Source of the DNA: Candidatus Tayloriibacteriota bacterium
GTDB taxonomy: Bacteria; Patescibacteriota; Minisyncoccia; Phycocordibacterales; HO2-43-120
NCBI GenBank assembly: GCA_039934295.1
Contig: JBDTMN010000005.1
Coordinates: forward strand, 921-64,920
Length of the DNA stretch: 64,000 nt
Direction: 5' to 3'
Below are positions 2,942-54,194 of this stretch, piece by piece (the first letter of the stretch is position 1; each line of letters opens with the position of its first letter). A model generated the notes under the pieces. That model made no database searches, was not told the DNA's origin, and was given only the letters and a program-made list of their open reading frames with translations. Made by a program: the position numbers and the translations under genes.

Positions 2942-3036
2942 AATATTTCACTGAACTGACTCGGACTAAGAACTCGGAACGACACGGAAAGGTTCCGATT
3001 CTGTTCCGTGTTCGAAGTCCGTGTTACTTCCGTGGT
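2942..3036 (-). repeat. ~95-nt intercistronic repeat element, copy 2 (response-regulator stop to pilT start)
   Basis: Ends about 8 nt before the pilT ATG; same sequence family as copy 1. Confidence 0.8.
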
Positions 3037-3428
3037 TACTTTTTCTTTTCCTGAATAATTTTTTCGACTTCTGTTACCACTTCTGAAGGAATGGTGGTCG
3101 CTTTGACAATGTAGCCGTCGATGCCATATTTCTTCGCATTTTCGATGTCCTCCGATTGGCTCTGGTTGGAAAGAACGATAATGGCGGCGAGAGGTGCAAG
3201 ATGCAGTCTCCTCATCTCCTGCAGAAATTGAATGCCGTCAAGGTCAGGCATTACAATATCCACCGTAATCGCATCCGGCAAAAGTCCTTCTCGAAGTTTT
3301 CTTAAAGCATCATTGCCACCTGCCGATACAATCACGTTGAATCCTGCCTTCTTGAATTTTATGTCGTACATGCTTAAAAGAAATGCATCGTCGTCGATTA
3401 CTAAAATTGTTTTTTGTTTTGAGTCCAT
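3036..3428 (-). CDS. CheY-like response regulator receiver protein (PilH-like, receiver domain only)
   Basis: ILVIDDD...DIVMPDLDG with conserved phospho-acceptor Asp context; 130 aa, no output domain. Confidence 0.8.
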   Translation of the reverse strand: MDSKQKTILVIDDDAFLLSMYDIKFKKAGFNVIVSAGGNDALRKLREGLLPDAITVDIVMPDLDGIQFLQEMRRLHLAPLAAIIVLSNQSQSEDIENAKKYGIDGYIVKATTIPSEVVTEVEKIIQEKKK

Positions 3429-3525
3429 ATATATATTTCACTGAACTGACTCGGACTAAGAACTCGGAACGACACGGAAAGGTTCCGATTCTTCTGTGTT
3501 CAGAGTCCGTGTTACTTCCGCGTTT
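3429..3525 (-). repeat. ~95-nt intercistronic repeat element, copy 3 (pilB stop to response-regulator start)
   Basis: Same family; slightly diverged 3' part. Confidence 0.8.
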
Positions 3526-6421: not shown

Positions 6422-7099
6422 TTATCGTAAATTTGTTGTTGTCGCGGAAGAGGTCGTTGCTGTCCGCGTGGTGGAAGCTGTCGGGGAGACGATTGGGGAG
6501 ACTACCGGTGTTACTCCGGCCGAGCTAATCTTATACAGAAGCAAAGAAGGGTCAACGCTCATCTTAACTTTAAAGGAGACATTCCGGTTCTCGTCGAGGG
6601 CTAAGTCATAAAAAGAAGGGTTCTTGAACGCCTTTTGTTTTCTGAATATGTCTGACTGGAGAGTGACCGCATTAAAGCCTCTCCCTATGCCTTCCATGGA
6701 CACGTCGAAAGAACCCAATTTTTCATCGCCAAATTGAAATGTCTTGAACTGAACTGTCTGAAGGGTGAGACTTTGAAGGGCCTGAAAAAGCGAGGAAATT
6801 CCCGTATGACTTCCCAGAATTTTTTCAGCGATTTGAATTCTTTTGTCATCGCGCGCCAAATCGGCGATCAAAGCAGATTGAATGTTCTTTTGCTCCACGG
6901 CAAGCTTCTCGTCCATAACTTTAATATTATTTTTGAGATAGTAGTTGTACCCAAAGATTCCGATTGACCCAAGAAAGACTATGACGAAGAGAATTATCGA
7001 GATAAGCGAAAATAAGCCGACACTACTGCCACGGCTTCCTCCCCCGCTGTCCACAACAGGTTTTTTCGGGATAAATGATGCTTGTCCTCTTGGTTCCAT
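6422..7099 (-). CDS. PilN-like type IV pilus inner-membrane component
   Basis: Single TM after a short cytoplasmic N-terminus, then a periplasmic domain; immediately downstream of pilM. Confidence 0.55.
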   Translation of the reverse strand: MEPRGQASFIPKKPVVDSGGGSRGSSVGLFSLISIILFVIVFLGSIGIFGYNYYLKNNIKVMDEKLAVEQKNIQSALIADLARDDKRIQIAEKILGSHTGISSLFQALQSLTLQTVQFKTFQFGDEKLGSFDVSMEGIGRGFNAVTLQSDIFRKQKAFKNPSFYDLALDENRNVSFKVKMSVDPSLLLYKISSAGVTPVVSPIVSPTASTTRTATTSSATTTNLR

Positions 7100-7195
7100 A
7101 TATATTTCACTGAACTGACTCGGACTAAGAACTCGGAACGACGCTGAAGGGTTCCGATTCAGTTCCGTGTTCAGAGTCCTTGTTACTTCCGTGTT
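7100..7195 (-). repeat. ~95-nt intercistronic repeat element, copy 4 (pilM stop to pilN-like start)
   Basis: Same family as 1781..1876, with substitutions in the central hairpin region. Confidence 0.8.
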
Positions 7196-8327
7196 AATCT
7201 ACTTCCTGCAACTTTCGAAGCGCCAATCCAACCGCAACGGCAAACTCGGGACCAGCGGATTTCAAAATGTTCGCGAGAAACGCAGGTGCTTCCACTTTTG
7301 AAAAAGGGTCCGCCGAAATTACCTGTACTTGAAAAGCCTGCTCGGCCATTTTGAGAAATCCCTGCAACCCCGACCCTCCTCCCGTAAGAACGACCTTGCC
7401 AACATTTTTATTATACTTTTTCTGATAGCTTAATAATAATCTATTCGACTCGGAAAATATATAGTCAAGTGTTGATAACATTATGCCCTGCATATCCTTG
7501 TTTCCGCCACCAAGGTCGAGCCCCTTTGTTCGTTTCAGATTTTCGGCCTCTTCCACGCTTACCGACATCGCCCTGGCAATGCCCAATGTGAGGTCTTGGG
7601 AACCCCGGTCAATAATATGTGATGTCTTCAAAATGCCACGCTCGACAACATAGAGCTTGGTCGAACTTGCTCCCATGTCAAAAATCATAACCGGACTAAC
7701 CTCGGCATCGAGCACGGCTCGGATGGTGCTGAAAATCTCAATTTCAAAAAAGCTCGAATCAAGTTGCGAAAGACGAACGATTTCTCGCATGTCATTCAAA
7801 GCATCGTTGTGGATAACTACAAGAAGGACCTGGGTTTTCTCAAGTTTTTTTTGAAGCACCGGAGCGTTGTTTCCCTTGTCTCCCTGAATCTCTTCTTCCT
7901 CATTCCAGATTTTGTCCTCTCTCGGCAATATCCACCAATCGAGCGTAACTTCGGAGATAGAAACGGGAATATATTTTCTGGCCTCCAAGGGAATCATATC
8001 CGCTATCTGCTTTTGATCCGTAGTCGGCACCTCAATCAAACTAATTAAGCTCGAAGACATCGAAATAGAAATGCCGCACTTTTTTGTCGTCGCATTCGCC
8101 TCCTTTAATATATCGTTCAGAGCTTCAGCAACTTTCCCAGGCGGAAGGTGAGTCGCCCGTCCCACTTCGAGCCCGGCATAGGGACCAAGGGCAAGAGCGC
8201 CGTATGTTTCCAAAACGGCTTTTCCTTTCTCTTTTCGAAGCTGGACGAGCTTGATTGAGGAAGGTCCGATGTCCACCCCGAGGACGCTTCGGTCATTTTT
8301 TTTAAATAATTTCGATAAAAATGACAT
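7194..8327 (-). CDS. pilM: type IV pilus assembly protein PilM (actin-like ATPase fold)
   Basis: LGVDIGPSSIKLV... and MIFDMGASSTKLYVV blocks typical of PilM/FtsA-like proteins; 377 aa. Confidence 0.85.
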   Translation of the reverse strand: MSFLSKLFKKNDRSVLGVDIGPSSIKLVQLRKEKGKAVLETYGALALGPYAGLEVGRATHLPPGKVAEALNDILKEANATTKKCGISISMSSSLISLIEVPTTDQKQIADMIPLEARKYIPVSISEVTLDWWILPREDKIWNEEEEIQGDKGNNAPVLQKKLEKTQVLLVVIHNDALNDMREIVRLSQLDSSFFEIEIFSTIRAVLDAEVSPVMIFDMGASSTKLYVVERGILKTSHIIDRGSQDLTLGIARAMSVSVEEAENLKRTKGLDLGGGNKDMQGIMLSTLDYIFSESNRLLLSYQKKYNKNVGKVVLTGGGSGLQGFLKMAEQAFQVQVISADPFSKVEAPAFLANILKSAGPEFAVAVGLALRKLQEVD

Positions 8328-10447: not shown

Positions 10448-10896
10448 AAATAAAAAGTGACAAAAAAGCTAAAGAAGAATTTGCAGAAATTCTTAAAACT
10501 AGAGGTTATTCTGATGTGCGGATAGTAAAGCAACCAGCTGATATTACTGCTATAAAAAATGATACAACATATTTTTTTGAGATTAAAAAAACTTCTGCGA
10601 AGAAGGAGTATTTTGGTGCAGCGACACTTACGGAATGGAGAGCTGCATATGAAAATCCCAATAGTTATTTTTTTGTTATAGCACAAGAGATACCAGAAGG
10701 TTTTAATTTTATTGAGTATACTCCTGATGAATTTGAGAAATTCTCATCTATTCCTCCTTTTAAAATATTTTTCAACATACCTTTAAATGGAAATAACAAA
10801 GTTGAAACAAGAAGGAAAAATAGGTCTGCAATTCAATTTATGAGAGAAAAATTGATAAAATTGGACGAGATATTTTCAACTTTTAAAAATGGCTAA
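10444..10896 (+). CDS. hypothetical protein with a possible PD-(D/E)xK nuclease-like core
   Basis: ADITAIKNDTTYFFEIKKT fits a D...ExK arrangement. Overlaps its neighbours by 4 and 8 bp, which suggests one operon with radC and the endonuclease. Confidence 0.4.
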   Translation: MKIKSDKKAKEEFAEILKTRGYSDVRIVKQPADITAIKNDTTYFFEIKKTSAKKEYFGAATLTEWRAAYENPNSYFFVIAQEIPEGFNFIEYTPDEFEKFSSIPPFKIFFNIPLNGNNKVETRRKNRSAIQFMREKLIKLDEIFSTFKNG

Positions 10897-12286
10897 AATA
10901 TATCAAACAAAAGAACAAGTCTTGGAAAAAGCAGAAACAATTTTGCATAAATCTTTGCGTGAGGTTATTTCCTTAGAATCACTTGGAATTATTGAGACCC
11001 AAATTGGAGAATATGGAATGAAGCGCAAAGGATTTTTGGGTGATTTGATAGAAAAATACTTTTTTGATATTAACCCCGGAAATATTAGTGAGCCAGATTT
11101 TAAAATTGCAGAGGTTGAACTTAAAACTACTCCACTAAAGAAACATGGCAATAAAAAATTAGTTTCGAAGGAAAGATTAGTTTTCTCAATGATTAACTAC
11201 GACACTGTCGTGAATGAAACATGGAAGCTAAGCTCTTTCTTAAAAAAGAACAGGTCATTATTATTGATGTTCTACTTATGGATGGAAAATAGGAGTATTC
11301 TTGATTATGAATTTAAATTTGTTCATCTATTGAATTTGCTAGAAGATATTTCTAGTGAAGATTTTTTTCAAATTCAAAAGGATTGGGAGTATATTGTTTC
11401 AAAAATAAAACGAGGAGAAGCACATCTTTTATCTGAAGGCGACACTTACTATCTCGGTGCTTGTACGAAGGCGGCGAATAGTCGAGTTGTAAGAGATCAA
11501 CCAATGAATCGTATGCCCGCAAAACCCCGTGCATTTTCTTTCAAACAACAATATATAAATTATCTGATCCAAACAAAGCTACTTGGCGAAAAAACAAACA
11601 CAGACTCAATTTTTAAGAAACAGAGACGAATTGAGACTATAGAAGATTTAATTAAGGAAAAGTTTTCTGCGTTTATAGGAAAAACTGACAAAGAAATACT
11701 TAATAAACTTGGCTCAAATCTCGGCACAAAAGCAAAAAGCTATAAGAGATTGATTGTTAATAGGATTCTTGATGTTAATTCAAATAACATCGAAGAGCTA
11801 GAAAAAGCCAATATAACTCTTAAGGTAATAACACTTGAACATAGTGGGACACTTAAAGAATCTATGTCATTCCCTGCATTTGATTACAAAGATTTAGTAA
11901 CTCAAATTTGGAATGATGACGAAGAAGAATCAATGGCTGATTTTCACCTACAACTTGAAACTAAAAAATTCTTGTTTGTTGTGTTTCAAAAACAGAAAGG
12001 AAGTGACGACATAATACTCAAAAAAACTATGTTCTGGAATTTTCCAATGAAAGATATTTCTGAGGCGGAGAACGTTTGGCAAAAAACAATTGATTGTATT
12101 AATGATGGTAGGTACGATAAATTACCAAAACTCAAAGATAGTCATGTGGCACATGTTCGTCCTCATGGAAAAGACTCGACCGATACAATTGCAACACCTC
12201 AAAATACACAGGAAATGAAGCGCTGTTTTTGGCTTAATGCTAAATATATACAACAAGCCATAGAAAACAAAAAAGATCAAGGTTGA
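10889..12286 (+). CDS. Sau3AI/MutH-family restriction endonuclease (candidate GATC-specific type II REase)
   Basis: N-terminal region matches the MutH/Sau3AI catalytic signature, including the EVELKT block that resembles MutH. Length 465 aa is similar to the two-domain Sau3AI; it sits next to a C5 methyltransferase. Confidence 0.55.
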   Translation: MAKIYQTKEQVLEKAETILHKSLREVISLESLGIIETQIGEYGMKRKGFLGDLIEKYFFDINPGNISEPDFKIAEVELKTTPLKKHGNKKLVSKERLVFSMINYDTVVNETWKLSSFLKKNRSLLLMFYLWMENRSILDYEFKFVHLLNLLEDISSEDFFQIQKDWEYIVSKIKRGEAHLLSEGDTYYLGACTKAANSRVVRDQPMNRMPAKPRAFSFKQQYINYLIQTKLLGEKTNTDSIFKKQRRIETIEDLIKEKFSAFIGKTDKEILNKLGSNLGTKAKSYKRLIVNRILDVNSNNIEELEKANITLKVITLEHSGTLKESMSFPAFDYKDLVTQIWNDDEEESMADFHLQLETKKFLFVVFQKQKGSDDIILKKTMFWNFPMKDISEAENVWQKTIDCINDGRYDKLPKLKDSHVAHVRPHGKDSTDTIATPQNTQEMKRCFWLNAKYIQQAIENKKDQG

Positions 12287-12317
12287 TCAATTTGTTGCTA
12301 TTTGCTATAATTACCTC

Positions 12318-13595
12318 ATGAAGAAAATACGAGTTGCTGAATTATTTGCAGGTGTGGGTGGGTTTAGAATTGGCCTGGAATCTGCTGCAAAAAAACAAAA
12401 AAACCTTAAATATGAGGTTGTCTGGAGTAGTCAGTGGGAACCGGGTGCAACCACTCAACACGCATCAGAAATATATGAGTTAAATTTTGGTAAAGATGGA
12501 CATTCAAATGAGGATATCCAAGAGGTCATCGCAAATAAATTTCACGAGATTCAAGATCACGATTTGCTCGTTGGCGGATTCCCTTGTCAGGATTATTCCG
12601 TCGCAAGAACACTAAGCCAAGCTAAAGGATTAGAGGGAAAAAAGGGGGTACTCTGGTGGTCAATTTATAATATCCTCAAAAAAAAAGGGAAAAATGCTCC
12701 CGGTTTTCTTATGTTGGAAAATGTTGACCGTCTTTTAAAATCACCATCTGGCCAGAGAGGTCGTGATTTTGCAGTTATGCTCTCATCTCTTAATAATTTA
12801 GGATACATCGTCGAATGGCGAGTAATAAATGCGGCCGAGTATGGAATGCCTCAAAGAAGAAGAAGAGTCTATATCCTAGGATATAAGAAAGGAACAAATA
12901 TTTACAAAAAAATTAAAGCCGAAAAAAATAAGGAAAAATGGATAAATAATGACGGAGTCATTGCAAAAGTTTTTCCTGTAAAAAATACAATTACCAGCAA
13001 TAACAGATTTTTCTTAGAGAAAGATTTAGTGAGACTATCTAAAAATTTTTCACTGGGTAAATCAACGAAAAGTCCTTTTGAAATCGCAGGCATTATGATT
13101 GACGGAGATGTTTACACACACAGAGTTACTCCTGAGTACAACGGCAACCTTACTACCTTAAGAGACCTTGTTGAGTCTGATGAGAAAAAGATTCCAAAAG
13201 AATTTTTTATTGATACTAAAGATATGCCTATGTGGAAATATCTTAAAGGAGGGAAAAAAGAAGCCCGAAAAAGTAAAAATGGATTCACCTATGATTATTC
13301 TGAGGGTGCTATGGTTTTCCCCGACTCATTAGAAAAACCATCTAGAACTATAGTGACTGGAGAAGGCGGTTCTTCACCTTCAAGATTTAAGCATGTAATA
13401 AAGACAAAATCAGGAAGTCTCCGCAGGTTAATACCGAAGGAGCTTGAAAAATTAAATATGTTTCCAGAGGGTCACACAGAAAAAATGCTCAATGGGAAAC
13501 TGACTCCTGACATAAAACGTGCTTTCATCATGGGTAATGCCCTTGTCGTCGGCGTAATAGAAAAATTGGGAAAATCTTTGGCTATGTTTCTGTAG
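12318..13595 (+). CDS. DNA (cytosine-5)-methyltransferase
   Basis: Motif I FAGVGGFRIG, motif IV GFPCQDYS, motif VI ENV, motif X GNALVV. Confidence 0.85.
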   Translation: MKKIRVAELFAGVGGFRIGLESAAKKQKNLKYEVVWSSQWEPGATTQHASEIYELNFGKDGHSNEDIQEVIANKFHEIQDHDLLVGGFPCQDYSVARTLSQAKGLEGKKGVLWWSIYNILKKKGKNAPGFLMLENVDRLLKSPSGQRGRDFAVMLSSLNNLGYIVEWRVINAAEYGMPQRRRRVYILGYKKGTNIYKKIKAEKNKEKWINNDGVIAKVFPVKNTITSNNRFFLEKDLVRLSKNFSLGKSTKSPFEIAGIMIDGDVYTHRVTPEYNGNLTTLRDLVESDEKKIPKEFFIDTKDMPMWKYLKGGKKEARKSKNGFTYDYSEGAMVFPDSLEKPSRTIVTGEGGSSPSRFKHVIKTKSGSLRRLIPKELEKLNMFPEGHTEKMLNGKLTPDIKRAFIMGNALVVGVIEKLGKSLAMFL

Positions 13596-13959: not shown

Positions 13960-15240
13960 CTAAAGTGATTTTAACCAATCAATGACCTTAATATTAGTTT
14001 CAAGCATTTCGATCACTTCTCTTTGTTTTGGTTCTTTTCCTTTATGCACAATCTCATTTCTTGTCTGATCGTAGAGCGTACACCACTTATTCCAAAGAGG
14101 TTCATCGGCTTCGTATAGAGATGTACTTTTTAGTTCTCTTAAACATTCTTTTAACCTTTCTTTTGTACGCCAATGCTGATCAAGATATTTTACCGCATCA
14201 GGTTCAGAATCTCCTCGTAATAGTAATATTTTGAATAAAAAGTTTTCCAAAAAAATCTCAAGTGCCTGAAATGATTGCACTACTGCAAGAGTGAAATCTT
14301 TGTTATCCAAAGACGTTTGAGCATCTAGTAACAGAAGATCGAAAATCTCAGGTTTTTCTCCCTTTTCAAGCATCTCTTTAATTTTTGTGATCTCATTCTT
14401 AGATCGATTCATTGTGGCAGTCTCAATACCAAAACCTGATCCCAATATGTAAAATCCTTTATTATGTTCTATGAAATAGATTGTATTTATCTCAAGCGTA
14501 CCCAATCTTTGGACAAAGCCATTTCTAGTTACCCCACGATAGCTATCTATCAATTTATTCACTACTGTAAGAGCAGTCTCTTTAACGTCGTCGATAACTT
14601 TTTCTAATTGGTTTCGATTAGCCAATTCTTGTACAGAAGTTGTTTTGTCGAATTGAATATAAAGAGCTGAATATCGGAACGTGCCATTTTGATCTTTCAT
14701 TCTCTCGATATTTCTACCTGTAAAGTCCTGTTCCCATCCATCATCAAAATCAACAGGTACTTTTGGAGTTAAAATTACACTGTTATTAAAATATGTTGTT
14801 TTATCTTCTGAAAAGAAATCAATCTCACTCGATTTTACCGCACCCTCCTGAGCTTTTTTAGTCCATATTTTTCTATGTATCAACAAAGCCTTGATTCCTA
14901 GTTCTGGTAGATCAACCTCTAGTTCATAGTGATTTGGTATATGTAAGCAGTACGGTAGGTGTGCCTCAACAAAAATATTACCGTAATCACAGTCTTTGAG
15001 GGCATCAGGATTATCATACTGAAAAGCCATTTGTGTCGTGTATATCGCGCTTAAAGGAGTAAGTCTTACAATCTGTAAATCTTGTTTGATCTTTTCTCTT
15101 AGATTTTCTTCTGGTGTCTCTGTAAGTTTATCTTTATTTGCGATTAGTGAGAGTTCTTCTTCTGAGGAAGTTTCTCCTACGGTAAAGACACCTTTGATGT
15201 TAATTTCAGTCTTGTTTTTGATTCTAAGCGGGTCTGCCAT
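13960..15240 (-). CDS. hypothetical protein with a C-terminal HEPN-like Rx4-6H motif (candidate abortive-infection or toxin effector)
   Basis: 426 aa. C-terminal helical region contains TRNEIVHKG (R-x4-H). No other recognisable domain; sits in the AT-rich island. Confidence 0.4.
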   Translation of the reverse strand: MADPLRIKNKTEINIKGVFTVGETSSEEELSLIANKDKLTETPEENLREKIKQDLQIVRLTPLSAIYTTQMAFQYDNPDALKDCDYGNIFVEAHLPYCLHIPNHYELEVDLPELGIKALLIHRKIWTKKAQEGAVKSSEIDFFSEDKTTYFNNSVILTPKVPVDFDDGWEQDFTGRNIERMKDQNGTFRYSALYIQFDKTTSVQELANRNQLEKVIDDVKETALTVVNKLIDSYRGVTRNGFVQRLGTLEINTIYFIEHNKGFYILGSGFGIETATMNRSKNEITKIKEMLEKGEKPEIFDLLLLDAQTSLDNKDFTLAVVQSFQALEIFLENFLFKILLLRGDSEPDAVKYLDQHWRTKERLKECLRELKSTSLYEADEPLWNKWCTLYDQTRNEIVHKGKEPKQREVIEMLETNIKVIDWLKSL

Positions 15241-15275
15241 ATAGTTGTATGCCTATTTTAGCAAATATAGGTATT

Positions 15276-15746
15276 TTATATAGGGTCTATATTGTTCTCC
15301 CTCAGTAACCTTTCTAAGTGCTCGATCCGTTGTTCTTGTTGGGTTAGTTGAAAAGCAACCACAGCGCTAGATGAAAACTCGTGAGGGCGTTTTAGCTCCA
15401 AGTATCGCCACGATGATTTTACATCTCCATTCAATAACGCTTGGAAGATTGCTTTGCGAGCAAGCAGTATTGGAGTGGCTTGTAAAAGCTCGATTTTGTT
15501 GCGAAACTCGGGATTATTTTTACAGTATCGATAGAACGAATCTGTCGAAATACCCGCCAAATTACAGGCTTCTTGAGCTGTACCACCTATTGAAGAAACA
15601 TACTGTAATTTCGCAACAACCTCATTTTCGTCTTTCCCGTCAAAGACAGGTCTACCAACGTATCTATTTTTGATCCTTGCTCGATAAGGAGAGAAAGTTA
15701 ATACAACATCACGGACTTTGAGTTTTTGCTTCTGAAATGTAATCAT
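15276..15746 (-). CDS. helix-turn-helix protein (terminase-small-subunit-like or regulator HTH)
   Basis: GGTAQEACNLAGISTDSFYRYCKNN is a typical HTH; 156 aa, immediately upstream of the HEPN-motif gene on the same strand. Confidence 0.45.
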   Translation of the reverse strand: MITFQKQKLKVRDVVLTFSPYRARIKNRYVGRPVFDGKDENEVVAKLQYVSSIGGTAQEACNLAGISTDSFYRYCKNNPEFRNKIELLQATPILLARKAIFQALLNGDVKSSWRYLELKRPHEFSSSAVVAFQLTQQEQRIEHLERLLRENNIDPI

Positions 15747-15847
15747 AGAGATTAAGCAGTTATATCAGCGGTTTCCTTAGATAGTTTAGGTATATAAAAA
15801 TAATTTGATGGCACTACCCAATAGGTTCTAATGTCATCTACTACCCT

Positions 15848-15900
15848 CCGCCCATACAAAAAACGAGCACTCTGGAGGTGCTCGTTTTTTGTATGGGCGG
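15848..15900. terminator. bidirectional intrinsic terminator
   Basis: CCGCCCATACAAAAAACGAGCAC-tctggag-GTGCTCGTTTTTTGTATGGGCGG. A 23-bp stem with A and T runs on both sides, downstream of the large minus-strand gene. Confidence 0.7.
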
Positions 15901-15963
15901 AAGTTTTTAACCGAAGTTCGAACGTTTTTTTAAAAAAATTCGCAACAGAACTATGTAGTCCAC

Positions 15964-18900
15964 TTAAATCCTAAAACTCTCTTTGATAATCCCCTTCTTG
16001 TTAGTCGACACATCCTTGCTCATTATCACAGTATAACTACCATCTGCGTTTTTCTTTTGAATTTCAACGCGAAATTCACCAGGTGGCACCAGACAATAGT
16101 ATCTTCCATACGCATCAGATACGACCGATTTTATTACGGCAAATTTATCCGGAGTATATACCTTTATGATTGCGTACGAGAGAGGTTGACCCGTCCGCGA
16201 ATCAATCACTGTGCCATACTGACGACCCCTAATTCCAAACATATACATCACACACAGAATGATGTAAGCGAATGAGAGAATGAGGTTTAGAGTGGAGAAG
16301 TTGAAAATATTTTCGACAATAGTAAACACCAAACCTGCTCCAAAAAGTATTTCACGTACCAGAGCAAATATTCGCTCATTTTTAGAGTGAAAAATCATCA
16401 GATCTTTGTCATGCTTTGCGAATTCGTTCCAATCAAACCCAACAGGATCTAAAGGAATATTTTTCTTCACAATTTCACCTGAAGAGATGTCAATCATTCC
16501 TCCAAAATACAAATCACCGTAGATTTCATCAAAACCTTTTCCCGACATTCGTTCCGAAGGAAATACACAGTGGGTCTTTTGAGCTTTCAACGTATACTTT
16601 CCGGGAGATAAGAGAAAACCGTATCTCCCGTCAAGGTCGGTGATTGACTCCGCTACTACGTTGCCCGAGATATCGAGTGCCGAAACAATCGCGGGATCAA
16701 GTGGCTGTTTGGTAACACTGTCGTATACCGTCCCCCATGGAGTTATTCTCTTTTTTATTCCAAAAAATATGAGGAGCAATCCCCAAAATCTTCTTAGTTG
16801 CAAAAGTAGTTCCGCAAGTGAATTGAACGACAGAGAACTTGAAACGACAGCGAGAAAAGGCACAATGAGACCGAGTGCTTTGACAACCGTTGCCTCTTTC
16901 GAATTTACAATAGTTTTGGATATACTTGTAGCGTCATCTATGATCCTTCCGACAACTGAAGTAAGACCTGAGACAATCGATACGAAAGACGTATTGCTTC
17001 CTGAAGTCGATATGCCATTGTTACCAGACGTGTTTTTTGTGTTGTCAATATTGTCAACATTATTGTCCACACTAGAATCGAAAGGTCCTGGGTTATTGTC
17101 GTTGGGATTAGTCTGCGTGTCGTTCATATTTGAATCAAGAAGAGGGTCATTCACCGGTAATTTATTTGGCGGTGGCGTCGGAATAATCGGTGGTCTAACT
17201 ACACGAGTAGTATAGTTCTTCTGGAATTCGAGTGGTATAGGTGTGCGGCGCGAAGACGAGCCTCCGGAAGAACCGCTCCCAGTAGAGCTAGGTGGCACAA
17301 CTGGAGGAACCGGACAACTTTCTGTCGCAAACATCACATCCTCTCCATAGGAAAGTCCCACGGTACTTCCGGCATATGCCGCCATGTGATAGGTGGTATC
17401 GCAAATTAAATCAGTAATCGGGGCAGTGAAAGTTCCGGCCGAGAAATCTCCCGATTCAGTTGTGGTTGAGGTGTAGGAAGCAGTAAGACCATATACGATA
17501 CCTCTCACATCTGGAATGACATCTCCTGTTGCCGTAATCGTTCCATTACCCGTAGCGGTAGTTTGGGTAATAGATGAAACTGCTTGAGTTGTAACGGTAG
17601 GGGCGAAAACGGCAATAGTGGTGGTCGAGAGTATGGCTCCAGTTGACGTGCCAGTAGAATTAACAGCATACGCTCGGAAGTAGTAGAGGGTGTTCGGAGT
17701 AAGACCGGTGAGATTTTCGGAGAATGATGCAGTTCCGATTTGAGCGCCCAAGGTTGAGGTGGCAATTACCGTCGAGAGGTCTGCTGACGTGCCATATGCA
17801 AAACCGCTTTCAGTTGCATCCTCTCCGCCGGTATCGGTGATGACTCCGTTTAAGGTCGCAGTAGTTTGAGTGACGGAAGAAGCAGCTTGGGTAGTGAGGA
17901 AGGAACCAGAAGGAGCGAGCGTGGCAGTCGAAAGAATGGAACCATACGAAGTTCCAGAAGGGTTTATGGCATACGCGCGAAAGTAGTAGGTGGTGTTCTG
18001 TTGTAGACCGGTTATATTTTGAAGGAATGAGGCTGTGCCAGTTTGAGAGCCCAAGGTTGAGGTGGCAATCACCGTCGAGAGGTCTGCTGACGTGCCATAT
18101 GCAAAACCGCTTTCAGTTGCATCGCCACCACTACCAGTAGCGGTTATTGTTCCGTTAAAGGTTATTGAAGATATAGTTATTGCAGTGGGGGGAGAAGTCG
18201 TAACATGCATCAAATCAACAAAAGTTACAGCCCCTAAAGAATCAGTGTAATTTAGTACGTCTGAAGCTGTGGCCGTACTCGTGAATGCTCCATTCAAAAA
18301 TGTGATACCTAAATTGGATATACTATTAGCCACAGCGTGACTTGAAGCAGTACCGGTAAATGTAAGAGTTGCCGTAGTACCAGCGCCGTTTACCGTCATG
18401 AGAGGAGTGAGACCGGCCGGAGCATTGCTGAGAGAGTAATCAGTATTTAAAGTGAGCGTTGAACCAGCATGAGTAAATAGGTCATTTGTAAGAGTAGCTA
18501 TGCGACTTCCAGAGACGATACCGTCATCAGCGCCGGTTTCGGTGAAAGAACCGGAGTATGAGGTAATTTTAGGTTCCGCAAATTTGTATACAATAGGTGG
18601 GTGATTGCTGTTGATACCAGCATCATTAAATATTACAAATGGAGTGTCATTGTGATCTATAGCCAAAGCAATAAAGGTTACGGCTCCAACGGAAAAACCT
18701 GAAGTGCCGACAGTGTCCCACGAGGAACCACTCCATTTTTTTACCACAATTTTGTCAGCAGGAATTGTGGTAGAATCAGCATATGCTATATATGGAGTAC
18801 CTAATGAATCCGTAGCGATATTCACACTAGATGCTACTCCATCAGAAAAACCGCGTGTCCCGATAAGATTCCAGGTTGCTCCATTATATTTATATACGGT

Positions 18901-19818
18901 AGCTTTTCCGCTATAAGGCGCTGGGAGATCAGAGTACCCTACATATGGCAATATACCCGTAGAATCAAGAGCTAATATTTTTTGAGCCTGTACACCGAAA
19001 CCTGAAATACCAGTACTTCCAATGGGGACATATTCCCAATTTAGCCCATTTAATTTTTTTACTACAGCTCTATTTCCTCCACCCACACCGGTATCTTCAT
19101 ATGCAAGATAGGGAACATTAGAAGAATTTATTTTAATTGCTATTTTGAATGCTGAATCAACCGAAATTGTAAATGGAGCCGTAAAAGGACTAGCACCACC
19201 GACATACAGCCAAGCAGAACCGTTCCATTTTCGAACTACAGTCTTATAGTTAGATGCGTCAACAAGATCACTATATGCTATATATACAAGACCTGTTGAA
19301 TCAATGGCGATAGATGGCTCACTTTGTAGATACCACTGACTTAAGCAAGCGGTGCCTTCATATACCCAATTTACTCCATCGAATTTTTTAACGCTTATGC
19401 CAAATTGTCCTTGAGTAGGACAATGTTGATCTCTAAACGCAACATATGGAACGCCAGAAGGACTGAGAGCCAGACGTGAGTAAAGAGCGCCAACGCCACC
19501 ATTGATATCTGCACTGCCCACTAAAGTCCACGACGAACCATTCCATTTTTTTAAATAACTTTTGCCGGTATCATAATATACGACATATGGTATATTTTGG
19601 GAATCAAAGACTATATCCTCCCAGGCTCCTCCATGTGGAGGAGTAAATTCTGATATTGAACCACTACCAACGATAGTCCATTGAGTAACGGCTAGTGCAT
19701 TCTGGGCAATAGAAAAACTTACAATAACTGTAAAAAGCGCAAGGGCATATTTAAAGTTTTTACTATTTCGTATTTTTGACATAAAACAATTAATGGTAAC
19801 TACCTGTATTATTGCCAT
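15964..19818 (-). CDS. giant secreted surface protein (beta-propeller-like repeats, FN3-like domains, low-complexity linker, multi-TM region, two carboxypeptidase-regulatory-like domains)
   Basis: ORF track 15964..19830 with a TTG start; the ATG MAIIQ... lies at 19816-19818 and MSKIRN... is another possible start. A signal peptide is present. Repeated ~50-aa units contain PYVAY...KW/KYNGSSW. Three or more ...TYYFRAYA...G.S.G modules are present. The C-terminus has GTVYDS...DGRYGF and GTVIDS...YGRYY blocks. Confidence 0.7.
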   Translation of the reverse strand: MAIIQVVTINCFMSKIRNSKNFKYALALFTVIVSFSIAQNALAVTQWTIVGSGSISEFTPPHGGAWEDIVFDSQNIPYVVYYDTGKSYLKKWNGSSWTLVGSADINGGVGALYSRLALSPSGVPYVAFRDQHCPTQGQFGISVKKFDGVNWVYEGTACLSQWYLQSEPSIAIDSTGLVYIAYSDLVDASNYKTVVRKWNGSAWLYVGGASPFTAPFTISVDSAFKIAIKINSSNVPYLAYEDTGVGGGNRAVVKKLNGLNWEYVPIGSTGISGFGVQAQKILALDSTGILPYVGYSDLPAPYSGKATVYKYNGATWNLIGTRGFSDGVASSVNIATDSLGTPYIAYADSTTIPADKIVVKKWSGSSWDTVGTSGFSVGAVTFIALAIDHNDTPFVIFNDAGINSNHPPIVYKFAEPKITSYSGSFTETGADDGIVSGSRIATLTNDLFTHAGSTLTLNTDYSLSNAPAGLTPLMTVNGAGTTATLTFTGTASSHAVANSISNLGITFLNGAFTSTATASDVLNYTDSLGAVTFVDLMHVTTSPPTAITISSITFNGTITATGSGGDATESGFAYGTSADLSTVIATSTLGSQTGTASFLQNITGLQQNTTYYFRAYAINPSGTSYGSILSTATLAPSGSFLTTQAASSVTQTTATLNGVITDTGGEDATESGFAYGTSADLSTVIATSTLGAQIGTASFSENLTGLTPNTLYYFRAYAVNSTGTSTGAILSTTTIAVFAPTVTTQAVSSITQTTATGNGTITATGDVIPDVRGIVYGLTASYTSTTTESGDFSAGTFTAPITDLICDTTYHMAAYAGSTVGLSYGEDVMFATESCPVPPVVPPSSTGSGSSGGSSSRRTPIPLEFQKNYTTRVVRPPIIPTPPPNKLPVNDPLLDSNMNDTQTNPNDNNPGPFDSSVDNNVDNIDNTKNTSGNNGISTSGSNTSFVSIVSGLTSVVGRIIDDATSISKTIVNSKEATVVKALGLIVPFLAVVSSSLSFNSLAELLLQLRRFWGLLLIFFGIKKRITPWGTVYDSVTKQPLDPAIVSALDISGNVVAESITDLDGRYGFLLSPGKYTLKAQKTHCVFPSERMSGKGFDEIYGDLYFGGMIDISSGEIVKKNIPLDPVGFDWNEFAKHDKDLMIFHSKNERIFALVREILFGAGLVFTIVENIFNFSTLNLILSFAYIILCVMYMFGIRGRQYGTVIDSRTGQPLSYAIIKVYTPDKFAVIKSVVSDAYGRYYCLVPPGEFRVEIQKKNADGSYTVIMSKDVSTNKKGIIKESFRI

Positions 19819-20357
19819 AGAATACCACAAGCTCGCAACTCACGCACACTACTCTAATAACAAAATTTAAACTAGGATCAAACTCATGAGGTGCTATTTT
19901 CTGGAATTTCAAGAATATGCAGATTGCCTCTATAAATTTTTTCTCAAGTGTCACACAAGACCGCCCCCACCAAAGCGCACTAGGCGCTAGGAAACTAGGC
20001 AGTAGGCTCTAGCAGAAATGCTAATGCCTAAAGCCTAATGAATTTCGGTGGGGAAGGAAGGAGAGGATGACGCCAGGTCAGCATGTCCCTCTGATATCCT
20101 ATGCTGGCGGCGAAGCAAAACCAAAAATTTCCTTTCCATTTTTTGTCGGCCCCCCACACTCACCCGCCGAGGAAAATAAGAAAGGTAAGGAAAATTTTTG
20201 GGTTTTGCATTGCGACCGTAGGGGCAGACGAGGCGCGCAGATTAATAGCAATCATCAGGATTTAGTTCGAAATACATTCGAACTTCGTTCAGTAGATACC
20301 GCCCAATTTTGAAATTGAAAATTGGGACGGGAGATGGAAGAAAATAATTTTTATATT

Positions 20358-23000
20358 CTAGATATCCGACAAGATAAACGTCCTCGTTATCGGTCCGAAG
20401 AATCCTACGGGAGGCGTGATGCCATGAGCTAACTGGAACTTGGAGAGAGCGGAGCGGGTAAGAGCTCCGAAGTAGGTGGTCTCATTGCCTGGAGAACCAA
20501 AGCCCGAAAGAGCAAGAGTGAATCCTTTGGAATTTAAGTATTGCTGAAGGAGTTTTACATCGCTTCCCACTGATCCCGAACCAAGATTACGGGTGAAGGA
20601 AAGCGGGGTGAGAACAGGCGGGAGTCCTATTCCCGGAGTAATTTCCACAACTGGAGCGATTCCCGACGTATTTGGACTACACATGTATCCTGAAGGATTC
20701 TCCGGAAACGGAATCAGGGTATATCCTTCGGCGCAGACTGGAAGAGCAGATGATGGTGAAGGTAATTGAGAAATGAAGTTCGCACTGCGACCGCCACTTG
20801 AGCTTCTCCTTCTTGAGGGGGTGGGAGTGGGGGAAGGTTCTTCTGTAGGACAAGCAGTTGTAGAAAATGAGATGATAGAGCCATAAGCGGTGGCTACAGG
20901 ATTTGTAGCATAAGCTCTCACGAAATATTCTGTATCACAGGTGAGGCCGGTCATGGTGCTAGTCCAGGGGCCACCGATGGCGAAACCATCTGTGGTTTTA
21001 GTGGAAAGAGCAGTGGTGGGATTTATTACTGTATCCCAGACGAGACCACTAACTGTCACTGTTGCTCCACCATTTGAAGATATAGTACCGCCACCAACTG
21101 CAGTGGTTTGAGTGATGGAAGTGACTGGGATTGTAGTGGTTACAGTGGGGACAACCACGCTACTAACCGTAACTGTAATTGGTGAAGATGTTGTGGTATT
21201 TCCAACATTGTCTCTTGCAACTGCAGTCAAAACATGGTCTCCGTCTGAAACAGAAGTCGCGTCCCAAATGATTCCATATGTAGAAGTAGTGTCTTCTATA
21301 TCCAGATTTATACTATCTAGCTTGAATTGAACACCCACAACACCAAAATCATCAGAAGCATCGGCCGTAATGGAGACAGATGCACCAGAAACAACTGCTA
21401 GATCAAGTGGAGCTGTGATTGAAATACTCGGCGCCGTTGTATCAATCACAATCGCCTTGTTGGCGGCTAAGTTGGTAGCTGGAATGAAGCTCGACATTGC
21501 ATTACCAGAGAGGTCGGCAATAGTGCCAGAGATTGAGTTGGTGTCTAAGTCGAGAGATGTGTCTCCAGCTTGTACGGTGTAATTACAAGTGCCGGTAGTA
21601 GAACCAGAGACCGTGAAGGTACATGTCCGGTCAGTGGCGCCAGTTTCGAGAGTGACTGTGACGCTACCAGTGGAAGTAACCGTCTCGGAGAAAGTGACGT
21701 CAATATCGATCACCTCTCCTGTCTTGTAGGTACCGTTTGCTTTGTCAGAGGAAACGTTGGTGATGGTGGGAATAGTTGGATCAATGGTTGAAACTGAAGC
21801 TTTGTTAGGGCCGTTTGCGGCATCCCAATATCCTAAATATGGATTATTATTTGAATCTAAATCTAAAGATGTGAAAGTACCTATAGATGATGTAAAACCG
21901 GCACTACCCACAGCTTCCCAAGATGAACCGTTATATTTCATGACAGTTGTCCTTAAACCATTTGCTCCATCGGAAAATCCTACATAAGGTACATCTAAAG
22001 AATCGAAGGCGAGAGATGGCCACTCTGATCCAGTGGCTCCTCCATTAAAACCAGCGCTACCAACGTTACTCCACGAACCACTGGTAAATTTCATGACAGT
22101 AATTCTATTGCTGGTTCCAACATCTTTATATGCTACATATGGAATGTTAGTGGAATCTAACTTGATTGAAGTGCTAAATACCTGTCCAGCCGAAAATGCA
22201 GGACTACCTACGACTACCCAAGATGAGCCATTATATTTCATGACTGTAGCTTTATTACCCCTGCCTGAAAAATGGTCACTGAAGGCAACATACGGTACAC
22301 CAGTAGAATCAAGAGCAAGAGAAACTTGGTCACCTTGCCCATCTGAAAAACCATTTCCAGATGAAGCACCTACTGTGGACCAGGAAGTACCATTAAATTT
22401 CTCAAGGGCAACCTTACCGCCGTCTGGAAAATAATCCATATGCGCTACATATATATTATTTGAAGAATCAATGGCAATAGAGGGGTAGTCCGCTTGTTGG
22501 CTGGTGGCAGCCACAGAGCCCACAGTTACCCACGATGAACCGTCAAATTTTTTAACCACAGCTTTATAGCTATTTCCACCAGTTCCGCCATCTTGCATTG
22601 CAACGTATGGGTTACCGCTAGAATCAAATGCCATAGTAGGAGTATATGAATCATTTCCTGAAATCCCAGTGCTACCCGAAGGCAGGGTTACCCAAGATGA
22701 ACCATTATATTTCAAAACCATTATTTTATTACTATTTCCGCTATCCCTATATGCAACATAAGGAGTATTAGTAGAGTTTAAAACAAGGTTAAGATAACTG
22801 GGTGTACCAGCTGAGAAGCCGAGACTCCCCACATTTGTCCATCCTATCGCTAGAACGTTCTGAACGTTTTGAACGTAGACCCCCGCAACTACCAAAAAAG
22901 CAAATGTCGGAAACAAAACAAAACTGTACCTGCGTTTTTTTAGCATATTTCGCATTTTGGACACAAAACAATTCATGGTAACTACCTGTATTATTGCCAT
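20358..23000 (-). CDS. giant secreted surface protein, paralog 2 (beta-propeller-like repeats, Ig/FN3-like domains, C-terminal peptidoglycan-binding domain)
   Basis: Same conserved N-terminus MAIIQVVTMNCF... Repeated PYVAY.D...K(Y/F)NGSSW units. The C-terminus VKLLQQYLNSKGF...GALTRSALSKFQLAHGITPPVGFFGPITR matches a PG_binding_1-type module. Confidence 0.7.
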   Translation of the reverse strand: MAIIQVVTMNCFVSKMRNMLKKRRYSFVLFPTFAFLVVAGVYVQNVQNVLAIGWTNVGSLGFSAGTPSYLNLVLNSTNTPYVAYRDSGNSNKIMVLKYNGSSWVTLPSGSTGISGNDSYTPTMAFDSSGNPYVAMQDGGTGGNSYKAVVKKFDGSSWVTVGSVAATSQQADYPSIAIDSSNNIYVAHMDYFPDGGKVALEKFNGTSWSTVGASSGNGFSDGQGDQVSLALDSTGVPYVAFSDHFSGRGNKATVMKYNGSSWVVVGSPAFSAGQVFSTSIKLDSTNIPYVAYKDVGTSNRITVMKFTSGSWSNVGSAGFNGGATGSEWPSLAFDSLDVPYVGFSDGANGLRTTVMKYNGSSWEAVGSAGFTSSIGTFTSLDLDSNNNPYLGYWDAANGPNKASVSTIDPTIPTITNVSSDKANGTYKTGEVIDIDVTFSETVTSTGSVTVTLETGATDRTCTFTVSGSTTGTCNYTVQAGDTSLDLDTNSISGTIADLSGNAMSSFIPATNLAANKAIVIDTTAPSISITAPLDLAVVSGASVSITADASDDFGVVGVQFKLDSINLDIEDTTSTYGIIWDATSVSDGDHVLTAVARDNVGNTTTSSPITVTVSSVVVPTVTTTIPVTSITQTTAVGGGTISSNGGATVTVSGLVWDTVINPTTALSTKTTDGFAIGGPWTSTMTGLTCDTEYFVRAYATNPVATAYGSIISFSTTACPTEEPSPTPTPSRRRSSSGGRSANFISQLPSPSSALPVCAEGYTLIPFPENPSGYMCSPNTSGIAPVVEITPGIGLPPVLTPLSFTRNLGSGSVGSDVKLLQQYLNSKGFTLALSGFGSPGNETTYFGALTRSALSKFQLAHGITPPVGFFGPITRTFILSDI

Positions 23001-23186
23001 AGAATACCACAAGCTAGCAACTCACGCACACTACTCTAATAAAGTTTGGCCTCGCCTAATACCCCGCCGAGGTACTCCAAGGGGACAGCTTGCTCTCGGG
23101 ATAGGACGAGACAAACCTTTATTTCGCAGTTGTATTTGCAATGAGTAGTCTGGTATTATATAAATCTATAAGCTATTTAAAATGCC

Positions 23187-23528
23187 ATGGAAACACAATC
23201 ATATTCACAATCAGAAGTTCCGGAATTATCACTTGAAGCATTTCAGCAAGAGATTGCAAAAATGAAAGAGGAAGAAGAGAAAGGAAAAAAAACGGGGAAA
23301 CCGTCCCACTTTGCGAATGGCCCAGAAGGGGAAGAAATGAAAGCTTCAGAACTTACTTCCGCAGATCTAGCAATGTGGCAAAGGATAAAAGAGTTTCCAA
23401 AGCAAGGAATCATCACTCAAGATGATTTCAAAACCTATAGCGAAGAAGCTATGAAAGATGGAAATTTTTCACGGGGACGATTTGTCGGTTTTCTTGCAAA
23501 TCAAGTTCAGAAAATTTGGTTCGAGTAG
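23187..23528 (+). CDS. hypothetical protein
   Basis: 113-aa ORF with no recognisable motif. Its 5' end, including the upstream 7 nt, is duplicated at 23651..23730. Confidence 0.4.
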   Translation: METQSYSQSEVPELSLEAFQQEIAKMKEEEEKGKKTGKPSHFANGPEGEEMKASELTSADLAMWQRIKEFPKQGIITQDDFKTYSEEAMKDGNFSRGRFVGFLANQVQKIWFE

Positions 23529-23650
23529 TAAAATAAAAAATCGAATCACTCCTCTTCCGCAATTCACTGTGGTAAAAAAGATTGCTTTCTTTTTTAAAGC
23601 TACATAGTAATGATTCGCTTTATATACTATATATCCATTTACTATATTAA

Positions 23651-23730
23651 AAGCCATGGAAACACAAACATATTCACAATCAGAAGTTCCGGAATTATCA
23701 CTTGAAGCATTTCAGAAAGAGATTGCCGTC
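23651..23730 (+). pseudogene. truncated duplicate of the 5' end of the 23187..23528 gene
   Basis: About 75 nt are near-identical to 23181..23262; the reading frame stops after 28 codons. Confidence 0.6.
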
Positions 23731-24751: not shown

Positions 24752-24799
24752 GCCCGATTCTATTCTAGTATTTTGCAAAATACTAGAATAGAATCGGGC
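24752..24799 (+). terminator. intrinsic terminator (perfect 21-bp stem)
   Basis: GCCCGATTCTATTCTAGTATTTT-gcaa-AATACTAGAATAGAATCGGGC, placed after the EamA gene. Confidence 0.7.
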
Positions 24800-24844
24800 G
24801 GGAATATTTTCTACCCGACTCACATTATAGCCCTGAAGCAAAAG

Positions 24845-26263
24845 ATGCGTAACCTAAAAGAGCATGCTCAAATTATCGCTTTGTCGATTGGAAGCATCAT
24901 CTCCCATTTTATTTTTTTCAGCTATCCCAGTGAGACTGTGTTCGACGAAGTGCATTTCGGCAAATTCATCTCGGGATATTTTTCCCATCAGTACTTTTTT
25001 GACATCCATCCTCCGCTCGCAAAACTCTTTATCACTGGCGTCGGCCTCTTAGGAGGGTATAAGCCGGAGATAGATTTTAGCGTAATCGGAGAAAGTTTTA
25101 CGAGTACTGATTTTATCTGGCTTCGCCTCCTTCCCACCCTTGCTGGCGCGATTCTTCCGCTCGTCATCTACTATCTCTCTCGCGCACTCAATTTTTCTAA
25201 GACGGCATCATTTGCCGCTGGCGCACTAATTATTTTCGAAAATTCCCTTTTGGTTCAGTCACGATTCATCCTTTTAGACAGCTTGCTTCTGCTTTTCGGA
25301 TTTGGGAGCCTCCTTTTCTATTTTCTTTACCGAAAAAAAGAAGGAACTGGAGTCGTCCCATATCTTTTTTTGGGCGCAATCGTATTTTCTTCTTTTGCAT
25401 TCAGCATTAAATGGACAGGGCTCTCTTTCCTCGCCCTAATAGTCGCTCTCGAATGCGCGCGTCTTTTCCATGCGAAATCATCCCTCAAAAAATGGCTTCT
25501 CACGTTAGGGAGCGTCTTCGGCCTCGCGTTCGTCATTTATTTCTCTACTTTCGCCGTTCATTTCGCACTTCTTTCAAAAAACGGCCCGGGAAAAGACTTC
25601 ATGTCCCCCGAGTTCCAGAAAACACTTGAGGGCAACAGCTATCAAAATGACGAAACTATTCACGCGCTTCCCATGTCTAAAAAATTTGTTGAATTAAACC
25701 TCGAAATGTATCGCGCAAACAAAAGATTGGACGCGACCCATCCTTACGGAAGCGCTTGGTACACATGGCCCTTCATGGAGCGACCAATATACTTCTGGAA
25801 GCATGAACAAATTGAGGCGCCAGCTGGAGCGCAAGACGGGCAAAGCAAAGTTGCCAACATTTATTCTCTCGGCAATCCCTTCATCTACTGGCTCGGAAGC
25901 GCGTCAGTTCTTTTCCTCTTGCTCAATTTTCTTTCGCAGGCAGTTTCGAAAAATAAGGATTTCAGGAAAAAGAGCGCGCTTGCGGTATTTCTTCTTTCGG
26001 GATTTTTCTTGAATTTTCTGCCTTTTATTTTTATAGGCCGAGTGATGTTCCTCTACCACTACTGTGTCGCCCTCATATTTTCTATTCTCATCCTCTGCTT
26101 TCTTCTGGATGGGATACAATTGGAAAAGAAGAAAAAAGCTTATGCTTTCGCACTGATTTTGATTTCTCTCTCCTTGTTCTTGTATTTCAGCCCCCTTACG
26201 TATGGAATCCCATTAAGAGAGAGTGCGGAGAATGCCCGATTTTGGTTTAAAAGCTGGCGGTAA
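24845..26263 (+). CDS. GT39-family (PMT/ArnT-like) integral-membrane glycosyltransferase
   Basis: N-terminal loop motif FDEVHFGKF...HPPL and multiple TM helices. The start is moved to the ATG after the terminator hairpin; the ORF track begins at 24773. Confidence 0.6.
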   Translation: MRNLKEHAQIIALSIGSIISHFIFFSYPSETVFDEVHFGKFISGYFSHQYFFDIHPPLAKLFITGVGLLGGYKPEIDFSVIGESFTSTDFIWLRLLPTLAGAILPLVIYYLSRALNFSKTASFAAGALIIFENSLLVQSRFILLDSLLLLFGFGSLLFYFLYRKKEGTGVVPYLFLGAIVFSSFAFSIKWTGLSFLALIVALECARLFHAKSSLKKWLLTLGSVFGLAFVIYFSTFAVHFALLSKNGPGKDFMSPEFQKTLEGNSYQNDETIHALPMSKKFVELNLEMYRANKRLDATHPYGSAWYTWPFMERPIYFWKHEQIEAPAGAQDGQSKVANIYSLGNPFIYWLGSASVLFLLLNFLSQAVSKNKDFRKKSALAVFLLSGFFLNFLPFIFIGRVMFLYHYCVALIFSILILCFLLDGIQLEKKKKAYAFALILISLSLFLYFSPLTYGIPLRESAENARFWFKSWR

Positions 26264-41668: not shown

Positions 41669-41679
41669 ACATGCCTCCC

Positions 41680-41727
41680 AAAAAAAAACTTCTCTACATA
41701 ATCACCAAAAGCAACTGGGGCGAGGCG
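41680..41727 (+). pseudogene. duplicated fragment of the GT4 gene 5' end
   Basis: About 44 nt (AAAAAAAAACTTCTCTACATAATCACCAAAAGCAACTGGGG) are identical to the start of 41958..43181. Confidence 0.55.
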
Positions 41728-46965: not shown

Positions 46966-47078
<113 letters not shown>

Positions 47079-53977: not shown

Positions 53978-54194
53978 TAGAGCTAGCGTGTTATAGAAAT
54001 GATTATATCATTTACTATCTCAGTCGCCAACAATTGGTGGCGACTTCAGTCGATACGGGGTCAATCCTTCGATAAACTCAGGACGACTTCCCACGGTATT
54101 CTCCTGCTTTCATAGACCTCCTTAAGTCTCCAGCTAGGACTCCACCGTTATAAGCTAGTTTTATCTTGATATCACTATCAAGTTGGGCAGTTCC

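Follow-up and report, generated by a model that had tools for sequence, protein, structure and literature searches.

Why do two neighboring genes for giant surface proteins, whose bodies have diverged widely, begin with almost the same 97 nucleotides? The question is raised by a 64-kb stretch of DNA from Candidatus Tayloriibacteriota bacterium (contig JBDTMN010000005.1; hereafter the window, in whose numbering all coordinates are given). In the NCBI records the two genes lie on a contig of 68,171 nt from a metagenome-assembled genome (MAG) of an uncultivated bacterium, listed as Candidatus Taylorbacteria of the candidate phyla radiation (CPR). Both open reading frames (ORFs) are on the minus strand and span, in their maximal form, 15964-19830 (1288 aa) and 20358-23012 (884 aa). 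Gene A (15964-19782; MEO8637674.1, ABI430_02105, 1272 aa) encodes a signal peptide, a seven-bladed propeller, three FN3-like modules, a P/N/T-rich linker and a membrane module, and gene B (20358-22964; MEO8637675.1, 862 aa from the NCBI start at 22946) encodes a signal peptide, a seven-bladed propeller, Ig-like modules (Big_7), one FN3-like module and a PG_binding_1 domain. Each gene is headed by one copy of the repeat, which we call the cassette, so that the order along the locus is cassette, gene B, spacer, cassette, gene A. The spacer between the stop of gene B and the second cassette (19861-20357, minus strand, 497 nt) contains no annotated gene and several hairpins, including a long one at 20104-20219.

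The shared segment is a direct repeat on the minus strand, with one copy at 19764-19860 (copy A) and the other at 22946-23042 (copy B), in which 92 of 97 positions are identical (94.8%, E = 4e-37 by self-blastn). A repeat finder and pairwise alignment agreed with this result, and the copies form the 5' ends of the 1288-aa and the 884-aa ORF, respectively. The initial annotation had reported near-identical segments of 120-125 nt at these places; the repeat proved to be real and its span to be shorter. The five mismatches fall at repeat positions 27, 69, 79, 84, and 90, leaving a single difference within the first 68 nt, and the longest exact runs measure 41 and 26 nt. The 5' edge is abrupt, the flanks upstream of TTATTAGAG being unrelated in pairwise alignment, and at the 3' edge the similarity decays within about 10 nt, inside the n-region of the signal peptide. 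At the background identity of the gene bodies, the probability of 92 chance matches in 97 positions is about 1e-20. Sub-patterns of 26 and 39 nt, searched through the window with up to three mismatches, were found at both cassette sites only (0 expected), no further copy of the cassette was detected in the window by pattern search with three mismatches or by self-blastn, and genes A and B have no other segment in common at a blastn E-value below 1e-3. Misassembly at the repeat is unlikely, because the exact shared runs are shorter than the k-mers that assemblers usually employ. A small antisense ORF in the cassette (MVTTCIIAIEYHKLATHAHYSN) was considered and rejected, since it is present in both copies only through the identity of the DNA and its one synonymous difference is no evidence for it.

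How much of this identity is coding depends on the start codons. The NCBI starts lie 16 (gene A) and 22 (gene B) codons inside the maximal ORFs, giving MSKIRN from the ATG at 19782 and MLKKRRY from the ATG at 22946. In copy B (22962-22964), a GTG stands opposite the ATG of copy A, and both are valid starts. Counted from these aligned starts, the repeat is divided into 78 nt of non-coding sequence with two differences and 19 nt of coding sequence, or about six codons, with three differences; in copy A the non-coding part occupies 19783-19860, and 19764-19782 holds the ATG and five codons (MSKIRN). If the NCBI start of gene B (ATG 22944-22946) is taken instead, the entire repeat of copy B is non-coding. 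Both proteins, read from the aligned starts, possess the signal peptide that had been proposed for them, in textbook Sec form with a basic n-region, a hydrophobic core and an A/V-L-A cleavage motif (MSKIRNSKNFKYALALFTVIVSFSIAQNALA in copy A and an equivalent peptide in copy B). The hydrophobic cores correspond to residues 28-49 and 29-50 of the maximal ORFs, and the peptides end in ...SIAQNALA/VT and ...QNVLA/IG, without a cysteine at the cleavage site and thus without a lipobox. The start MAIIQVVT(I/M)NCF that was initially assumed is implausible, because a hydrophobic stretch would then precede the basic n-region, and the MAIIQVVT... codons are probably not translated. Thus, of the earlier description of the repeat as a 5' untranslated stretch followed by 13 or more codons, the mostly non-coding character stands and the position of the starts, which lie further downstream, does not. 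Relocating the start codons did not leave a purely coding identity behind; on the contrary, the better-supported starts enlarge the non-coding share to 78 nt.

The gene bodies behind the cassette are very different from each other. In a codon alignment of the first ~430 residues, all windows except the first showed 40-59% nucleotide identity and 19-58% identity at third codon positions, from which it follows that silent sites are at or near saturation. The propellers are 37.7% identical in an alignment of 40 sequences (38% over 431 aa by pairwise alignment), and in the same 40-sequence alignment the propeller of gene B is up to 48% identical to proteins from other phyla, among them those of Cohnella and Syntrophomonas. 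Ordered by identity among the 39 aligned relatives, gene A takes 30th place for gene B and gene B takes 12th place for gene A, an order that is not a phylogeny. As far as such ranks can indicate, they argue against a recent local duplication of the two genes, and the earlier idea of a duplicated cassette, understood as a recent tandem gene duplication, is not supported. Given that the bodies are saturated and that each propeller is closer to other proteins, the cassettes do not owe their 95% identity to the duplication; this identity points to a later event or to continuing homogenization. The tract is far more similar than its surroundings (95% versus 40-59%), a feature of gene-conversion tracts.

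The reading that we favor, giving it about an even chance of being correct, is that the cassette represents a shared expression and initiation module in front of both genes, the similarity of its two copies having been created or preserved by gene conversion or by a recent recombinational transfer. Each gene would then possess its own cassette, consisting of about 78 nt of non-coding sequence followed by the start codon and the first ~5 codons (M/V-S-K-I/M-R-N), which would form the positively charged n-region. The non-coding part would likely hold the core promoter together with a 5' untranslated region (UTR) that is short and A/U-rich and lacks a Shine-Dalgarno sequence, the candidate promoter elements being the extended -10-like TGGTATTCT (repeat positions 34-42) and AATAAT (48-53). 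Both genes would be under the same transcriptional and translational control, and a lectin-like propeller would be displayed in two layers, wall-bound via PG_binding_1 and membrane-anchored via a module with several transmembrane (TM) segments and CarboxypepD_reg domains. The 5' end might have been passed from one gene to the other by later gene conversion or recombination. Promoter content, co-regulation and conversion as the cause are the parts of this reading that we infer. Concerted evolution of 5' ends by gene conversion is known from tufA/tufB, from the opa genes of Neisseria and from the sapA homologs of Campylobacter fetus with their conserved 5' region, usually with longer tracts or between more similar genes. 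The present locus resembles such cases in having a short near-identical tract in diverged paralogs with one sharp edge at the end of the homology; it differs from them in that the tract comprises only 97 nt, is mostly non-coding and belongs to genes with saturated silent sites, and the conversion itself is deduced.

In both copies, the two candidate promoter elements are accompanied by TACCAT (repeat positions 63-68), and direct reading of the cassette reveals TTGCGA/TTGCTA 19 nt before AATAAT. If transcription started after TGGTATTCT or after AATAAT, the 5' UTR would measure about 18-30 nt and the repeat would extend from about -50/-60 to about +40/+50, and would thus correspond approximately to one complete promoter plus initiation region. 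Gene A plausibly needs a promoter of its own, because the hairpin-rich spacer of 497 nt separates it from gene B. A Shine-Dalgarno-like 4-mer (GGAG, GAGG, AGGA, AAGG) was found within 20 nt upstream of none of the 29 well-supported gene starts in the window, and Shine-Dalgarno pairing is apparently not used by this organism, which implies that initiation is guided by other 5' features. TATAAT-like boxes located 6-8 nt before several starts (12318, 27951, 45917) are a hint of some leaderless mRNAs; the distances between TATAAT and ATG over the 29 starts showed no clear peak, and we draw no claim of leaderless transcription from them. In the region as a whole, promoter-like sites were fewer than in shuffled sequences (10 versus 16.6).

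Several observations weigh against this interpretation. A promoter scan found no canonical sigma-70 pair of -35 and -10 elements with a spacing of 16-18 nt inside the cassette, and the -10-like motifs that it does contain are weak. Outside the repeat, some 110 nt 5' of copy B, there is a perfect TATAAT, and the cassette could consequently be pure 5' UTR for gene B. Moreover, 97 nt at 95% identity is more than a promoter alone would require. Neither purifying selection nor conversion is demonstrable from two near-identical copies that have no relatives in the searched collections. These collections were searched as follows. A 24-mer of the cassette had no match in genome and metagenome contig collections, among which the source MAG is not included; a 19-mer from the other half of the cassette had one chance match with unrelated flanks in the same collections, and neither had a match in viral contigs. 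No comparable 5' repeats were found in homologous loci by self-comparison of 82 loci from other organisms (77 other genomes and a few metagenomic contigs), and a locus with two homologs, L001, showed coding repeats only. The C-terminal module of gene A has a relative in Taylorbacteria whose upstream region is unrelated to the cassette. Judging from these comparisons, the common 5' stretch is not a general property of the protein family.

Two other histories could account for the same arrangement by recombination. The repeat might be the neutral footprint of a single recent event, in which unequal crossing-over or a single-crossover (Campbell-type) insertion placed a second surface-protein gene downstream of a duplicate of the 5' end already present; it would then be young and not selected, and the same 5' ends would merely be a by-product. 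We regard this as improbable, yet as an explanation to be taken seriously, since a single crossover within the cassette would yield the observed layout of the locus, each propeller has closer relatives than the other one, and in two further places of the window (41679-41726/41972-42019 and 23140-23257/23609-23726) the 5' end of a gene is duplicated on either side of extra DNA. Such an event, however, needs a donor with the same cassette before a different gene, which would imply conservation of the cassette within the population; the searched contig collections yielded neither a donor nor a related sequence, and four of the five mismatches cluster in the last 29 nt instead of being evenly spread. 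Alternatively, the direct repeats might serve surface variation, by allowing RecA-dependent or site-specific recombination to delete or amplify a unit of 3182 bp (gene B and the spacer) and so to switch the propeller/anchor pair behind the upstream promoter region, comparable to vpma/vsp of Mycoplasma and sap of Campylobacter fetus. This we consider clearly unlikely. The vpma sites comprise the 72 nt before each start codon (-1 to -72) with at most five differences, followed by a conserved N-terminus and unrelated bodies (PMC2268961), and the 78 nt with two differences followed by a conserved n-region resemble them; surface proteins with alternative anchors would also be plausible targets. Like vpma of M. 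agalactiae (Xer1) and vsp of M. bovis (Mbr), the locus consists of surface-protein genes that share a conserved 5' UTR and signal start and are unrelated thereafter, whereas those systems comprise numerous lipoprotein genes in either orientation, with one promoter and a tyrosine recombinase next to them. Here there are only two genes, with direct copies on the minus strand, so that recombination would delete instead of inverting; their signal peptides lack a lipobox, and neither gene is obviously silent, since the cassette is complete upstream of each. No tyrosine or serine recombinase, integrase, resolvase or reverse transcriptase was detected by Pfam among ORFs of at least 110 aa in the 64 kb, where ORFs without any Pfam match include 13960-15240 and 37574-38905 and might conceal an enzyme of a novel type. 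The sole transposase-like gene encodes a Y1 enzyme resembling REP-associated tyrosine transposases (RAYT), 39 kb away and with palindromic repeats of its own. Decidedly unlikely, too, is a broader version in which the cassette is a dedicated expression and recombination site, behind which bodies of surface proteins are swapped, stacked or deleted across the population. If this were true, attachment proteins would be exchanged in an uncultivated episymbiont without an adjacent recombinase, and the other 5'-end duplications would be footprints of the process.

The remaining readings place the cause in the cassette sequence itself. A cis-acting RNA leader on both mRNAs (a riboswitch, a thermosensor, a target of a small RNA or a site for a translational repressor) would fit with an identity that crosses the start codon into the first codons, where translational operators lie, and unusual control of initiation is conceivable where Shine-Dalgarno sequences are lacking. 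The minimum free energies, however, were like those of shuffled sequences: neither copy of the cassette has a stable fold (z = +0.72, -0.77, +0.12, and +0.29 against dinucleotide shuffles for both copies at two lengths). Rfam 15 gave no family in the leaders at gathering scores and none at E <= 5, in or around copy B as well as in the leader of copy A; near copy A, only generic hairpin models matched, and these matches fall in the spacer, outside the leader. The shared regulatory RNA structure that had been suggested for the leader is thus not supported, and we consider an RNA leader very unlikely. Extremely improbable, in our view, is a dispersed intergenic repeat of the repetitive extragenic palindrome type (REP/REPIN) or of the type of miniature inverted-repeat transposable elements (MITE) that landed before both genes by chance. 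Such families do occur at gene starts in the window, namely a 92-nt hairpin with four copies in the pilus operon and a palindrome flanking the RAYT-like gene, but these hairpins are strongly stable (z = -5.1 and -6.3), whereas the cassette has a z close to 0, lacks terminal inverted repeats and supplies a start codon and first codons in frame. In addition, it has no similarity to the other repeat families and only two copies in 64 kb.

The shared expression and initiation module that we favor would serve two proteins with the same kind of ectodomain on different anchors, an arrangement already proposed by the initial annotation, whose account of the protein architectures was borne out. Each protein contains seven units of the PYVAY.D...K(Y/W)NGSSW type, located in the propeller of gene B at 21768-22850 (minus strand, ORF residues 55-415) and in that of gene A at 18586-19683 (minus strand, ORF residues 50-415; seven PYVAY.D-type units). 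An AlphaFold model of gene B residues 55-415, computed with the 40-sequence alignment as input, reached a mean confidence (pLDDT) of 92.2 and a pTM of 0.92 and arranges 27 strands in seven blades; the four-stranded blades close a ring, as in a seven-bladed propeller. The best folds in the PDB are the Photorhabdus lectins PLL/PHL and BT3686-type proteins (TM-score 0.6-0.69, 12-14% identity), with a Foldseek probability of 1.0 for PLL/PHL, and no PDB chain was matched by the propeller at the level of sequence. The predicted fold shares with PLL/PHL and BT3686 the seven blades of four strands; it differs from them in being one module of a large anchored multi-domain protein, and the likeness to lectins derives from the predicted fold. 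The propeller domain is widespread and occurs in Bacteroidota together with sorting domains of the type IX secretion system (T9SS), in Paenibacillus and Cohnella together with SLH domains, and in CPR bacteria.

Behind the propeller the two proteins differ. In gene B, Ig-like modules (Big_7, E = 6e-14) and one FN3-like module are followed by PG_binding_1 at 20412-20567 on the minus strand (PF01471, E = 1.4e-9, 38.5 bits versus a cut-off of 23, residues 816-867 of the 884-aa ORF), which represents the peptidoglycan-binding end of this protein. Gene A has three FN3-like modules at 17320-18249 (minus strand; fn3 30.5 bits versus a cut-off of 25), two of which are 81% identical in DNA, then the P/N/T-rich linker and a C-terminal membrane module at 15967-16953 (minus strand). 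In this module, hydrophobic segments at residues ~985-1003, 1153-1173, and 1180-1202, and a weaker one at ~1012-1027, alternate with two CarboxypepD_reg domains (PF13620), which scored 35.7 and 34.0 bits against a cut-off of 32.3 when the segments were scanned singly; in a scan of the whole protein only the related PF13715 was matched, with 25.7 bits against a cut-off of 32.2. The last 329 residues of gene A have 283 homologs in Patescibacteria, with 42-50% identity over 84-100% of the length; these proteins are mostly of ~450-575 aa and are named "carboxypeptidase-like regulatory domain-containing". In contrast to them, the module is fused here behind a propeller and three FN3 modules in a protein of 1272 aa. 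In another Taylorbacteria genome (L084, 8001-9338) a gene of the module family is divergent to a PMT_2 glycosyltransferase gene, and a PMT gene is present in this window as well, at 24773-26263, 1.8 kb beyond gene B. The sequence comparison suggests that, in gene A, a propeller-FN3 ectodomain has been joined to a resident membrane module.

The arrangement as such is of a known kind, paralogous surface-protein genes with a common 5' region, and is an ordinary case on present evidence. To our knowledge, promoters and translation-initiation signals of CPR/Patescibacteria are essentially uncharacterized, and in this CPR genome, which shows no Shine-Dalgarno motifs, the cassette is a candidate for a minimal module of promoter and initiation region. 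This organism is thought to live on other cells, and with a lectin-like propeller predicted on both the wall and the membrane, the products of the two genes may be reasonable candidates for attachment proteins. A role of the repeat in deletion or stacking of genes, if there is one, would provide a first hint that members of the CPR vary their surface by cassette recombination.

Further features were noticed around the two genes and elsewhere in the window, whose genes comprise, according to Pfam, a type IV pilus operon, a restriction-modification pair, RecG, FtsH, SecDF, cell-envelope enzymes, LAGLIDADG endonucleases and an IS200-like Y1 transposase. A near-perfect hairpin with a 23-bp stem is located just 3' of gene A (15820-15928), and the long hairpin in the spacer 3' of gene B (20104-20219) has arms of 28 nt. 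Two 46-nt stretches 3' of the genes (15894-15939 and 20260-20305) are 72% complementary to each other, possibly by chance. Directly 3' of gene A, an ORF at 15276-15746 on the minus strand resembles the small subunit of phage terminases (phrog_4102, E = 9e-11), and an ORF of 426 aa in the same region (13960-15746, minus strand) has a weak PHROG match (phrog_28299). Both adjoin a pair of C5-methylase and MutH/Sau3AI-like restriction genes (10889-13595) and a RadC gene, and the region 13960-15746 may be a remnant of a phage or of a defense system.

The two further 5'-end duplications differ in their extent. In the gene for a glycosyltransferase at 41958-43181, codons ~4-18 are duplicated 293 nt upstream (41679-41726 versus 41972-42019; 48 nt, 96%), with about 245 nt of hairpin-rich DNA between the copies, and the ORF that begins with the upstream copy continues into unrelated DNA. 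The segment 23140-23257 is repeated 469 nt downstream at 23609-23726 (118 nt, 85-90%) and includes the upstream region and about 24 codons of a 113-aa ORF (23187-23528), which is divergent to gene B and has no Pfam or PHROG match; the second 5' copy heads a truncated ORF of 28 codons.

Repeats of other types are present as well. The hairpin element of about 92 nt occurs four times on the minus strand in gaps of the type IV pilus operon (1785-1879, 2944-3038, 3433-3526, and 7098-7198), with 85-98% identity, 32 predicted pairs and -39 kcal/mol, and each copy ends 2-6 nt before the next start codon (PilC, PilT, a response regulator and a PilN-like gene). It looks REPIN- or Correia-like and could have a role in mRNA processing or stability or act as a promoter. 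The gene for the IS200-like Y1 transposase (62084-62743, minus strand; Y1_Tnp, E = 1.6e-9) is flanked on both sides by TTCCAAGGGTAACCCTTGGAGAT, and its best NCBIfam match is "REP-associated tyrosine transposase", with 39.7 bits below the cut-off of 80. Palindromic copies are located around it at 62047-62070, 62766-62830, 63811-63875, and 63941-64000, and, judged by their sequences, transposase and palindromes together resemble a RAYT/REP system, here within the CPR.

The 23S rRNA gene (minus strand, region 46974-57355) is heavily interrupted, with a group I intron at 54311-54588 and four ORFs for LAGLIDADG endonucleases (48151-48633, 50399-50998, 51272-51877, and 53456-53977). A 5S gene follows about 6 kb beyond the last recognized 23S segment, and the 16S gene is absent from the window. 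A repeat of ~110-130 nt with 84-94% identity occurs three times in the 23S region (47733-47863, 55625-55734, and 57225-57355). In the comparison locus with two homologs (L001; JGI Ga0558720_01399, 1-24398), a cluster of giant proteins is built from repeats of ~120 aa, some copies of which apparently contain an in-frame TGA, suggesting a reassigned stop codon.

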